DNA of 64,000 bases. Source: Pyrinomonadaceae bacterium. Its GTDB lineage: Bacteria; Acidobacteriota; Blastocatellia; Pyrinomonadales; Pyrinomonadaceae. Both the position numbers and the translations under genes were made by a program. The notes under the pieces were generated by a model that saw only the letters and a list, made by a program, of their open reading frames with translations, did no database searches and was not told the origin of the DNA. The DNA is taken from positions 192,013 to 256,012 of the forward strand of contig DATFGP010000022.1 of NCBI GenBank assembly GCA_035249365.1. Reading direction: 5' to 3'. Of the stretch, positions 40,698 through 43,477 are shown piece after piece (within the stretch, counting starts at the first letter, position 1; the number at the start of each line of letters is the position of its first letter).

Positions 40698-40722
40698 ACT
40701 TCATAAGCGAGGTAGTCTTATT

Positions 40723-41253
40723 GTGAGAACCATAAGTGAAGAGATCATCCATGAAGGAAAACATTTCAAGGTGATTCACGAGACTGTTGAGATTGAAGGG
40801 AAAATTAGGGTATGGGAATATGTTAAACGCAAAGACGGGACGCGGACAATAGCAATTGATCAAAACAATAATATTCTTTTAACAAGAGAATACCGGCATG
40901 AGTTGCGAGCTGAAGATTGGCGCTTGCCCGGCGGCAGATTGGATGATGAGAGTGAGCCGATAGCAGAAGCTGCTAAAAGGGAGTTTCGAGAAGAAACCGG
41001 CTTTATCGCCGACAAGTGGGAATATCTATGGTCAACCACGCCGGAATCAACGGTTAGATATTTCAGGCATTTTTTTTTGGCGACCGAACTTAAGCAAGGA
41101 CAGAGCGAACCTGAAGAGGGGACAAAGATCACTGTTCACTGGATACCACTTCCTCAAGCATATGAGATGGCACTGCGCGGCGATATTAAAGAAGAGATTG
41201 CCGCGCTTGCGATTATCAGGTTCTTTCATAAAGCTGAAATGAGAGGAAGGTAA
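40723..41253 (+). CDS. NUDIX hydrolase (ADP-ribose pyrophosphatase-like)
   Basis: Nudix box 'GGRLDDESEPIAEAAKREFREETGF'. GTG start. First gene of the AT-richer segment. Confidence 0.85.
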   Translation: MRTISEEIIHEGKHFKVIHETVEIEGKIRVWEYVKRKDGTRTIAIDQNNNILLTREYRHELRAEDWRLPGGRLDDESEPIAEAAKREFREETGFIADKWEYLWSTTPESTVRYFRHFFLATELKQGQSEPEEGTKITVHWIPLPQAYEMALRGDIKEEIAALAIIRFFHKAEMRGR

Positions 41254-41408
41254 TATCTGAATTCTTCAACTTTGATAAAGTATGTTGAGTCTGAAAGTTT
41301 TTTGGTAAACGCATTGGATTTTGGCTAAGGCGCCGCGATCTAATAATTTATATTTTTGGCCTTTGCCTGTTGCAATCGTTCTTCTTCACATGTCAAGGAC
41401 ACATAGCG

Positions 41409-42386
41409 ATGCAACCACCGTCGAACTTGAATAACAATAAGCCGGGTAAAGATAATGAATCGTTATTAAAGAAAGTCCTCAGATTACTCGGCATTCTAGG
41501 CTTGGGCGTTTTAGGTAGTTGGCTGGCTGGTAAAATTCCAACCTCAGACCACTTGCCTAATTTGCAGCGGTTTCAGATGGCTATTCCTTGGATATTGGCT
41601 ATCTTTTTCTTTATAACAACGTCGCTCTTGTATTTGAAATCGCGCGGGCATAAAGAGCTGGAAGGCAGAAAGAACGCACTGGAAAGCAGAAAAACCGAAT
41701 TAGATGCGGAATGCAAACGCTTACAAGAAGATTACTCGTCATTAGAGATCGAAGTCAAAAGATTACAGGAGGAGAACTTAAAGCTTCAAATCGAACTGCC
41801 ACGGGAGTGGGTAGGCATTCAGGAGCGGACTGGACTTCAAGGTTACGATCCTGACTTGAGTGATAGCCCGTTTCATCCTGAAAGGTGCTTGCCGACAATC
41901 GGTAAGAGTTTAAGTTTTATGGGTCACGGCGCAAGCAAATGGACGGCGCATGTCCCACCGCTGGAAGATATGCTTGAAAGAATCCGGGGTGAAAGAAACA
42001 AGAATAACTCAAAGGCAGTAGTAAAATTTCTTATTCTTAATCCGGCTCACGAAAAGAATACAAAACAACAGCGCCGCAGAATTGCAGTCAGTTTGATGAA
42101 TCTCAAATTTTTGCAGAATGAATTTCCGGAAGTGTTAATGATAAGGGTTTTCAATCACCTCCCACAGTTCAGATTAATTTTTATTGATGGTAAAAAACTC
42201 GTTGTTGGACATTACGGGGGCGAACAAAGAAAAGAGAGCGACAATACTCCTTTGCATGTTTATAGTATCGAAGGTGAATGGAGTTTCTTTCATCCTTTCG
42301 AGGAACATTTCAATACTGAATGGGCTGCCGCCAAGGTTCCAGAGTGGACGGAAATCGACACCATTGCAAACCAACCGGTCAACTGA
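41409..42386 (+). CDS. Hypothetical protein: 2 TM helices, coiled coil and an uncharacterised C-terminal globular domain
   Basis: TM segments 'VLRLLGILGLGVLGSWLAG' and 'IPWILAIFFFITTSLLYL'. Coiled coil 'ELDAECKRLQEDYSSLEIEVKRLQEENLKLQIEL'. C-domain 'VKFLILNP...FRLIFIDGKKLVVGHYGG...PLHVY'. An alternative TTG start exists at 41370. Confidence 0.55.
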   Translation: MQPPSNLNNNKPGKDNESLLKKVLRLLGILGLGVLGSWLAGKIPTSDHLPNLQRFQMAIPWILAIFFFITTSLLYLKSRGHKELEGRKNALESRKTELDAECKRLQEDYSSLEIEVKRLQEENLKLQIELPREWVGIQERTGLQGYDPDLSDSPFHPERCLPTIGKSLSFMGHGASKWTAHVPPLEDMLERIRGERNKNNSKAVVKFLILNPAHEKNTKQQRRRIAVSLMNLKFLQNEFPEVLMIRVFNHLPQFRLIFIDGKKLVVGHYGGEQRKESDNTPLHVYSIEGEWSFFHPFEEHFNTEWAAAKVPEWTEIDTIANQPVN

Positions 42387-42409
42387 CAAGAAGACAGTGA
42401 GAAATCATT

Positions 42410-43465
42410 ATGAGTTCCAAGACAAGATTTCTTGATCTAGCCATGCACGGCGGATGCTCGAAGAAGGTTGGCGGCAAGGATTTACAAAGACTGCTTTCCA
42501 ATTTAGCTGACTCCGAAACGGATCACCAATTTTCTGAAATTAAAGGCTGGCTGGATTTTGGCCTTTATGAGCGTAAAGATGAGGCTCTAATAAGTAATGT
42601 TGATATTGTTCTGCCGATGGTTCCTAATCCTGCCGACTTCGGGGAAATTGTTGTTGCACATGTCTTGAGCGACATTTACACATCTGGAGCAAAGCCGCTT
42701 TTCGGGCTTAACATCCTCGGCGTTCAACAAACCATTGATTTAAGCAGTAACGGCAATGACATAAAGTTAATGCTGGCATCTGCTGCTAAAAAGCTACACA
42801 GCGCAGGAGCGCAACTCGTCGGCGGGCACTCGATTGGAAATCAATCTGACCTTTATTACGGTCTAGCAGTGTTCGGGATAATTAACAAAGATTCGTTAGT
42901 AACGAACAAAGGGGCCAAAACAGGTGATGCTTTAGTCCTAACAAAACCGCTTGGAACCAGCATCGCCTCAAAACTATGGAAGAGTAATCATCACCTTGAG
43001 AACGATTTCCAAGATGTGTTAACAGGTATGAAGCAACTCAATGACATAGCAGCAGAAGAAATGCTTAAAGGCCAAGCTCACGCTTGTACTGACATCACAG
43101 GTTTTGGCTTGCTCGGCCATACACATAATCTGCTTCGTGCGAGTGAGGCAGCTTGCGTCATCAACGTCGAGAACTTGCCCATTTATGATTCGGTGCAAGA
43201 CTTCGGCGGAGCTGAGTATCAAACGATGATTTTCGATAAGAATAAAGAATACGTCGTTGACTACGTAAATGACGATGATGTAGAGCTAACTTCATTGCTT
43301 GATGTTGTTATTTATGATGCTCAGGTTTCCGGCGGTCTACTCGTAAGTCTTACTCATGAGGAAGCTGGCAAATATGTCGAACGATTGAGAGACAGAGGAG
43401 TTACAGCATCTATTATTGGCGAGGTAGTAGAAGGTCAAGCGGGGTATATAACGCTTTTGCCATAA
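42410..43465 (+). CDS. selD: Selenide, water dikinase (selenophosphate synthetase), Cys-type
   Basis: Collinear with E. coli SelD as I remember it: N-terminal 'HGGCSKKV' (compare 'HGAGCGCKI'), 'DFGEIVVAHVLSDIYTSGAKP', 'GGHSI', 'LTKPLGT', 'TDITGFGLLGH' and 'DAQVSGGLL'. Confidence 0.85.
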   Translation: MSSKTRFLDLAMHGGCSKKVGGKDLQRLLSNLADSETDHQFSEIKGWLDFGLYERKDEALISNVDIVLPMVPNPADFGEIVVAHVLSDIYTSGAKPLFGLNILGVQQTIDLSSNGNDIKLMLASAAKKLHSAGAQLVGGHSIGNQSDLYYGLAVFGIINKDSLVTNKGAKTGDALVLTKPLGTSIASKLWKSNHHLENDFQDVLTGMKQLNDIAAEEMLKGQAHACTDITGFGLLGHTHNLLRASEAACVINVENLPIYDSVQDFGGAEYQTMIFDKNKEYVVDYVNDDDVELTSLLDVVIYDAQVSGGLLVSLTHEEAGKYVERLRDRGVTASIIGEVVEGQAGYITLLP

Positions 43466-43477
43466 ACGGATTTATAA

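Follow-up and report, generated by a model that had tools for sequence, protein, structure and literature searches.

The locus described here lies in a 64,000-nucleotide stretch (called the window below, always at its full length of 64 kb) of a metagenome-assembled genome of Pyrinomonadaceae (Acidobacteriota), where a cassette of three genes, encoding a NUDIX hydrolase, a membrane protein designated X and a SelD-like enzyme of the PurM superfamily, is found within the complex I operon. An earlier note, made from the sequence alone, had placed three co-directional genes exactly between nuoF and nuoG, and the open reading frames and their Pfam domains agree with this placement. The features of the island (40698-43477) and its two flanks are as follows, where GC3 denotes the GC content at third codon positions.

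39372-40697, + strand: nuoF, left flank, outside the cassette (Pfam Complex1_51K and NADH_4Fe-4S; GC3 0.78, host composition)
40698-40722, + strand: left junction, 25-bp spacer with GAGG resembling a ribosome-binding site
40723-41253, + strand: NUDIX hydrolase, 176 aa (PF00293, 4.4e-16)
41254-41408, + strand: NUDIX-X spacer, 155 bp, AT-rich
41409-42386, + strand: X, 325 aa (alternative TTG start at 41370)
42410-43465, + strand: SelD-like PurM-superfamily enzyme, 351 aa (AIRS and AIRS_C domains)
43466-43477, + strand: right junction, 12-bp spacer ahead of the nuoG ATG
43478-45787, + strand: nuoG, right flank, outside the cassette (Pfam Fer2_4, NADH-G_4Fe-4S_3 and Molybdopterin; GC3 0.75, host composition)

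The GC content of the island is 0.433, which corresponds to z = -8.2 relative to the rest of the window, where 1114 windows of the same size gave a mean of 0.594 (standard deviation 0.020, minimum 0.539). GC3 is 0.41-0.45 in the three island genes compared with 0.75-0.82 in nuoB-nuoM, and the GC steps are abrupt at both borders. The AT-richness that the earlier note had judged by eye, and for which it had suggested a codon-usage comparison, is thus borne out by both measures. Its description of borders without recombination marks was also confirmed: no tRNA gene was found in the window, no integrase or transposase was seen among the genes examined around the island, and border repeats or target-site duplications were limited to matches of 10-16 nt at chance level, the best being a 10-nt exact pair, of which about five would be expected per 3.2 kb according to our estimate.

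Promoter and terminator scans of the island spacers gave no excess over the shuffled background. With junction spacers of 25 and 12 bp and no terminator above this background, co-transcription of the island with complex I is plausible, and the cassette would probably be expressed by read-through of transcripts that start at the nuo promoter. Also considered was whether the 155 bp separating NUDIX from X contain a regulatory RNA or a promoter; this was rejected, since the spacer shows no conservation relative to a second carrier genome (L004, described below), is unstructured (folding z = +0.78) and does not exceed the shuffled background in the promoter scan.

To compare the nuoF-nuoG junction across relatives, a metagenome scan was performed with NuoG, yielding 80 Pyrinomonadaceae-like loci (L015-L094) with 70-92% NuoG identity. 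In none of these 80 loci were NUDIX, X or SelD-like genes observed at the junction. The nuoF-nuoG gap ranged from approximately 0 to 1447 bp, and the longer gaps hold unrelated small cargo, the names of which are our reading of the translations and not results of hidden Markov model (HMM) searches.

L017, L032, L043, L054 and L059: HicB/HicA-like pairs
L057: IS110-like transposase
L025: Uma2-like endonuclease
L019: retropepsin-like protein
L061: DUF2442/DUF4160-like pair
Also in these gaps: two families of small secreted or coiled-coil proteins

Since the junctions in the relatives are either empty or occupied by other small cargo, the nuoF-nuoG spacer is a hotspot of insertion. A second, diverged genome (L004) was found to carry this cassette at the equivalent site, with NuoG 73% and NuoF 85% identical to those of the window, and with cassette identities in tblastn of 78% for NUDIX, 42% for X and 79% for the SelD-like protein. 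The L004 island is likewise AT-richer than its own flanks. The left-junction motif AGCGAGGTA followed by GTGAGAAC, and the right-junction GATTTATAA followed by ATG, are common to both islands, and the empty site of L018 has an unrelated 44-bp nuoF-nuoG spacer.

In a neighbour-joining tree of NuoG, the window and L004 carriers fell into different subclades, each with close sisters in which the site is empty or differently filled (L015 and L018 for the window, L030 for L004). This distribution needs one of three histories, namely repeated loss, repeated gain, or lateral spread through conserved flanks. A check for a recombination tract, which would mark transfer of the island along with nuoF and nuoG ends out of an L004-like donor, showed that FKKHL at the 3' end of nuoF and M-[ST]-TELIK at the 5' end of nuoG are common to the window and L004; the nuoF tails are however hypervariable, and the cassette-free L016 also begins with MSTE.

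Beyond this junction, the order NUDIX-X-SelD-like was observed in nine independent contexts (the window, L004, L002, L005/L006, L007/L008, L012/L013, L095, L096 and L097), seven of which have no nuo genes; apart from the two nuo cases, the neighbours change from context to context. In most loci the three genes overlap or are closely spaced, and wherever the flanks could be used (eight contexts) the GC content of the cassette is 0.04-0.16 below theirs. NUDIX, X and SelD-like proteins give congruent matrices of pairwise identity, indicating that the three genes are inherited together. Further X/SelD-like pairs were found on contigs of matching size in two protein searches. In L012 the neighbours include genes for an integrase and an rve transposase, in L095 genes for PIN, ParA-like and integrase proteins, and in L097 a gene for an MNT-type nucleotidyltransferase; a small HAD-like gene lies ahead of the cassette in the distant loci L002 and L012 (32% identity, E 3e-22). 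A match of a neighbour in L007 to the PADLOC model 'mad3' covers only a generic ABC ATPase region and was not used as evidence.

The X family is very rare, with 2 matches by single sequence and 21 by profile in 5.8 billion proteins, and a scan of GTDB representatives gave one X-family locus only, belonging to a sibling system in Thermoanaerobaculia. No X-family match was found in viral contigs, and a phage origin of the cassette was rejected on this ground.

Horizontal acquisition into the nuoF-nuoG junction, as the earlier note had proposed, is supported by the foreign composition, by the nine contexts and by the comparison of relatives. An ancient arrangement of native composition, fixed across the clade, does not apply, as only the window genome and L004 carry the cassette and the site is empty or otherwise filled in 80/80 relatives; nor is linkage elsewhere lacking, as the three genes are strictly linked in the same order and co-diverge in all nine contexts. 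It is almost certain that the island is a horizontally acquired, conserved cassette residing in a hotspot.

The label 'SelD' in the earlier note calls for qualification: the protein is of the same fold family but belongs to a divergent clade lacking an Asn residue reported to be essential. The SelD-like protein passes TIGR00476, the selD equivalog model (240.8 bits, cutoff 125), and fails two other SelD equivalog models, NF002098 (182.5 against 299) and NF010705 (120.7 against 291). The best solved relative is Aquifex SelD (2yye, 2e-42), and the identity to Firmicutes SelD is 36-37%. Among the 120 best matches listed, 55 clusters (P0003-P0056 and P0066) form a cassette-type clade, 38-100% identical to the window protein, with the signatures H-G-G-C-S-[KR]-K, VD[IV][IV]L in place of DFFT, and H-V-L-S-D in place of N-A-[LI]-S-D.

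The Cys-x-x-Lys loop (HGGC16-S-K-K19) aligns with the loop of Aquifex SelD and is kept in every full-length member of the clade. The metal/ATP-binding residues Asp49, Asp65, Asp88 and Asp228 are also kept, aligning with the canonical DDAG, (V/L)DFF, LSD and CTD(I/V)TGFG motifs. In contrast, His84 occupies the position of Asn87 of E. coli SelD, the residue being His in 55/55 clade members and Asn in every canonical sequence aligned with them. Asn87 has been described as essential for catalysis (a secondary statement citing the E. coli structure paper; PMC4210487). Because of the change from Asn to His and the failed equivalog models, the protein was not filed as canonical SelD. It probably still performs ATP-dependent chemistry at the Cys loop.

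In every context examined, the SelD-like gene is flanked by NUDIX and X genes and not by selenium-utilisation genes, and no selA, selB, selU, yqeB/C, senA/B or tRNA-Sec gene was found in the window by a tRNA scan and a Pfam survey. Orphan selD genes have earlier pointed to new selenium traits, and a SelD-like family has been linked to sulfur metabolism (PMC2432076, PMC4210487). As a separate observation, many canonical SelD entries (P0057-P0122) are 304-329 aa long and lack the N-terminal loop, one possible cause being truncation at an in-frame selenocysteine (Sec) codon, UGA.

The best solved relatives of the NUDIX protein are ADP-ribose pyrophosphatases, with 1mk1 (2e-19) followed by NudF and Thermus Ndx4, and the matches to 1mk1, 5i8u, NudF and 1v8i (2e-19 to 5e-13) extend over nearly the full length. 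The Nudix box (REFREETGF) is intact, catalytic glutamates included, and the protein fails the NudE equivalog model (52.4 bits, cutoff 169). With 45-75% identity to the NUDIX proteins of eight other cassettes, it belongs to a lineage specific to the cassette, which diverges in step with X and the SelD-like protein. Overall the protein resembles ADP-ribose/ADP-sugar pyrophosphatases.

X, described in the earlier note as a transmembrane (TM)/coiled-coil protein, also carries a PLD-like domain that the note did not contain. In the AlphaFold model (mean predicted local distance difference test score, pLDDT, 86.7), two long N-terminal helices and a coiled coil extending to about residue 129 precede an alpha/beta domain (137-320), and TM-like segments are located at residues 18-36 and 55-73. 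The C-terminal domain, designated Xc (residues ~137-320), was found to have the PLD fold. Its family motif, x-F-R-x4-D-x6-G-[HS]-Y, has the same spacing as the HKD motif H-x-K-x4-D-x6-G-S-x-N, and in the window protein reads Q253-F-R255-LIFI-D260-x6-G267-H268-Y. Across the Xc family various residues (Q, H, V, K, T) stand at the position of the nucleophilic His, an invariant Arg takes the place of Lys, and the Ser position holds either His or Ser. By this mapping, which uses motif spacing and not structural superposition, X is assigned a PLD-like domain without the catalytic His, and a basic pocket (Lys177, Arg255, His268) would be suited to a phosphorylated ligand. TM-like segments, two or three in number, are present in 7/9 cassette X proteins; the X proteins of L012 and L095 are TM-less.

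An HMM search with Xc identified 890 representative proteins at E <= 1e-3, of which 139 were scanned with Pfam. The fusion partners in these 139 were DUF5919 (32), DUF4062 (5) and TIR (3), together with CAP12/Pycsar-TIR, patatin, PNP_UDP_1, PRTase-CE, cytidylyltransferase-like, EAD11 and bestrophin-like domains (once each); a few proteins carry DNA-binding domains (DUF5919 type, Trans_reg_C, BTAD). Fusions to TIR_2 (P0140) and to a nucleoside-deoxyribosyltransferase-like (NDT-like) domain (P0142) were also observed. Xc therefore appears to behave as a sensor joined to exchangeable outputs, including 2TM, TIR, CAP12-TIR, patatin, PNP_UDP_1, DUF4062, NDT-like, EAD11 and bestrophin-like modules. 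The window X reaches no Pfam threshold and has no match to DUF5919 (PF19319) even at E <= 1, compared with matches in 9/22 close and 32/139 more distant relatives, suggesting that X is a related but divergent branch relative to DUF5919.

The surroundings of Xc proteins in other loci are as follows. In L012, an operon (4064-7673) encoding a HAD-like protein, a TIR protein, NUDIX, TM-less X and the SelD-like protein lies on an island with the integrase and the rve transposase, and the TIR protein matches PADLOC PDC-S35 at 2e-57 as well as CBASS and Pycsar TIR effector models. A sibling system of five genes on Thermoanaerobaculia-type contigs (L011, 2887-7093; L014, 127-4342) encodes a weak cytidylyltransferase-like protein, a CMP-kinase-like protein (~400 aa), a PRTase, a GMP-kinase-like protein and an NDT-like::Xc fusion, and in L011 it adjoins ThsB-TIR and caspase (Peptidase_C14) genes. 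A two-gene module (L009, 3622-5303; L010, 1004-2685) consists of a TIR_2::Xc fusion and a cytidylyltransferase-like gene and adjoins a SUKH-family immunity gene. The partner enzymes at these sibling loci (CMP-kinase-like, PRTase, GMP-kinase-like and cytidylyltransferase-like) are predicted to be nucleotide-centric.

The rarity and patchy distribution of the cassette, its AT-richness relative to each host, the integrase and toxin-antitoxin-type neighbours and the swapping of effectors point to a mobile conflict module akin to defence or abortive-infection systems, and we hold the chances to be about even that the cassette is such a module and works roughly as follows. The PLD-like domain Xc would bind a phosphorylated ligand, probably derived from a nucleotide or ADP-ribose; synthesis, conversion or removal of this ligand would fall to the ATP-consuming SelD-like enzyme and the NUDIX pyrophosphatase; and the coiled coil and two membrane helices of X would provide the output, for example membrane perturbation. 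A more specific version, a new immune or conflict signalling class in which a neofunctionalised SelD-type enzyme, with Cys-x-x-Lys retained and Asn replaced by His, uses ATP and makes a chalcogen-phosphate or phospho-ADP-ribose/nucleotide messenger, the NUDIX enzyme edits or resets it, and Xc reads it and drives membrane, TIR or other effectors, is considered doubtful.

Several points weigh against a conflict or defence function, which is predicted from sequence. A recognised signal synthase (TIR, CD-NTase, cyclase or Cas10) is absent from the core trio, and a TIR gene is found only in the L012 variant. In L095, X is TM-less and no obvious separate effector is present, indicating that X may not be the effector or that the PLD-like domain may itself be active. 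The neighbourhoods of L005/L006 and of the nuo operon are housekeeping regions, not defence islands, and the lack of viral matches is neutral. As some Xc proteins are fused to DNA-binding domains, the domain is a sensor of general use and is not restricted to immunity. Moreover, the Cys-x-x-Lys loop, present in every SelD-like member, agrees no less well with a chemistry of selenium or sulfur than with signalling.

This last point leads to the main rival, a serious one and not mutually exclusive with a conflict role, in which the cassette is a selenium or sulfur utilisation trait. The SelD-like enzyme would make selenophosphate or thiophosphate, X and NUDIX would use it or trim a nucleotide-activated intermediate, and the product would be a metabolite, lipid or nucleic-acid modification that contains selenium or sulfur, the whole being a horizontal metabolic add-on. 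The TIGR00476 score, the strict conservation of the Cys-x-x-Lys loop and the four ATP/metal-binding Asp residues across the clade, and the earlier cases of orphan and sulfur-linked SelD proteins are all in line with this, and the recurrence of a HAD-like phosphatase gene upstream in L002 and L012 suits a small-molecule pathway. However, the reported-essential Asn is His in every clade member, X lacks the catalytic His of the PLD HKD motif, and no selenium-utilisation gene accompanies the cassette within the window. The fusion of Xc to TIR, patatin, PNP and EAD11 in relatives is a conflict signature and not a biosynthetic one, and the L012 operon contains a TIR effector gene. On balance, this pathway is considered unlikely, though it deserves real weight. 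A selfish addiction module of the toxin-antitoxin kind, without an immune role, in which one of the enzymes drains ATP or produces a toxic derivative of a nucleotide and NUDIX neutralises the effect, was judged quite improbable. Penalised loss of the cassette would explain its persistence in hotspots, and the hotspot of relatives holds pairs read as toxin-antitoxin (HicAB-like, DUF2442/DUF4160-like), with PIN and MNT-type genes among the cassette neighbours; the tight packing of the genes and the pairing of an enzyme with a hydrolase are formally compatible with toxin and antidote. Three conserved genes and a sensor-type domain nevertheless exceed the needs of a toxin-antidote pair, nothing points to which gene would be toxic, and the line separating such a module from abortive-infection defence is largely semantic.

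The remaining two explanations concern the island in the window. An accessory role for complex I, in which the NUDIX enzyme would remove ADP-ribose or damaged NADH in the vicinity of the NADH site, or the SelD-like enzyme would act in supplying an Fe-S or selenium cofactor for NuoF/NuoG, would agree with the exact, co-directional position between genes of NADH-oxidising subunits, with the very short spacers and with the presence of another non-nuo redox gene (redoxin) between nuoM and nuoN. The distribution contradicts it, with the cassette absent at 80/80 related nuoF-nuoG loci and present in seven contexts without nuo genes, and the foreign composition of the cassette and the unrelated cargo at the junction in relatives also make such a role very improbable. 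An assembly chimera, in which AT-rich reads of another organism were joined into a high-GC contig, could be suspected from the metagenome-assembled source and the abrupt GC steps. It is hardly conceivable, since the arrangement is present in three assemblies, with both junctions spanned in independent ones: an ENA assembly (k141 contig, 137 kb, L003), the Logan contig L001, which runs from NUDIX into nuoG, and the NCBI record of the metagenome-assembled genome. In addition, the flanking nuoF and nuoG belong to one continuing operon, and the diverged L004 has the same arrangement with homologous junction sequences.

Other features were observed elsewhere in the window. The redoxin gene (redoxin/AhpC-TSA type, 52223-52825) has native GC and lies between nuoM (50607-52175) and nuoN (52887-54464), and no nuoI is present between nuoH (45884-46975) and nuoJ (47056-47730). 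A match to the Rfam SAM_alpha riboswitch (21525-21600, + strand; 41.2 bits, gathering score 36) lies upstream of a gene encoding a fused homocysteine S-methyltransferase and MTHFR (21757-23652); SAM_alpha is described by Rfam as alpha-proteobacterial, and the genome here is acidobacterial. Two more low-GC spots (0.47-0.50) were located at 59501-61000 and 1-1000, the former containing an open reading frame (59951-60520, 189 aa) without a Pfam match.

Against PADLOC-DB 2.0, X and the SelD-like protein gave no match at E <= 1, and NUDIX matched only PDC-S07 at 8e-07. Searches of the literature found neither the gene trio nor DUF5919 described, nor a SelD-like enzyme as part of a conflict system. 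The impression in the earlier note that the gene combination matches no recognised system is consistent with both searches, there being no PADLOC model for X or the SelD-like protein and no published description found. To our knowledge, no defence system is built on a SelD-like PurM-family enzyme and an ADPRase-like NUDIX. The cassette is a candidate sensor-effector conflict module in which neither the enzyme pair nor the sensor fold has been seen before.

If the conflict reading is true, the cassette would be an undescribed mobile module with a SelD-like PurM-family enzyme and an ADPRase-like NUDIX as its enzymatic core, and the PLD-fold domain Xc (DUF5919-like, 890 representatives) would be a sensor that is connected with effectors of the TIR, patatin, phosphorylase and membrane kinds. 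Should the new signalling class also hold, it would be the first link of selenophosphate-synthetase chemistry to immunity and would suggest a ligand class for DUF5919/PLD-like sensors. The nuoF-nuoG hotspot of Pyrinomonadaceae-like genomes is of interest in that a core respiratory operon can take up accessory and toxin-antitoxin-like genes, which would be transcribed along with it. Automated pipelines (JGI names) label the cassette proteins 'selenide, water dikinase'; since these proteins lack the reported-essential Asn and have no selenium genes beside them in the contexts examined, the label could inflate counts of selenium users and of 'orphan SelD'.

Compared with canonical SelD (TIGR00476; 2yye, 3u0o), the cassette protein has the same AIRS and AIRS_C fold, the Cys-x-x-Lys loop and the four Asp ligands, and differs in forming a separate rare clade with its own signatures, His in place of Asn87, and NUDIX and X neighbours. 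The archaeal SelD-like family proposed for sulfur metabolism (PMC4210487) is likewise a divergent SelD paralogue with ATP binding and Cys chemistry and a predicted role outside Sec and selenouridine; however, that family is reported to keep all key residues including Asn and has no link to NUDIX or PLD-like proteins, whereas the cassette clade lacks this Asn. The NUDIX protein resembles M. tuberculosis Rv1700 (1mk1), NudF and Thermus Ndx4 over its full length with the Nudix box intact, but falls below the NudE cutoff and forms its own lineage co-diverging with the other two cassette proteins. FAM83 and the TrmB sugar sensor share with X, as far as sequence mapping indicates, a PLD-like domain without the catalytic His, while TrmB-type regulators and DUF5919 (PF19319) proteins have a DNA-binding output where X has a pair of membrane helices.

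Among immune effectors, the TM effector of Pycsar, the 2TM effector of CBASS and the Macro-TM ThsA of type II Thoeris were compared, the sensors of such effectors being SAVED, cNMP-binding, SLOG or Macro domains. Like these signal-activated membrane effectors, X is built of an N-terminal TM module, an oligomerisation helix and a C-terminal ligand-type domain, its relatives likewise exchange the N-terminal module for TIR, patatin or phosphorylase, and the cassette is likewise mobile with nucleotide-metabolising enzymes as companions. A sensor domain on interchangeable effector modules, as in second-messenger immune systems, is also seen in the Xc family, in which ligand binding is putative. Unlike the sensors of Pycsar, CBASS and Thoeris effectors, that of X is a PLD-like domain without the catalytic His and not a SAVED, cNMP-binding, SLOG or Macro domain, and in place of the TIR, CD-NTase, cyclase or Cas10 synthase of Thoeris, CBASS, Pycsar and type III CRISPR, the core of the cassette has the SelD-like and NUDIX enzymes.

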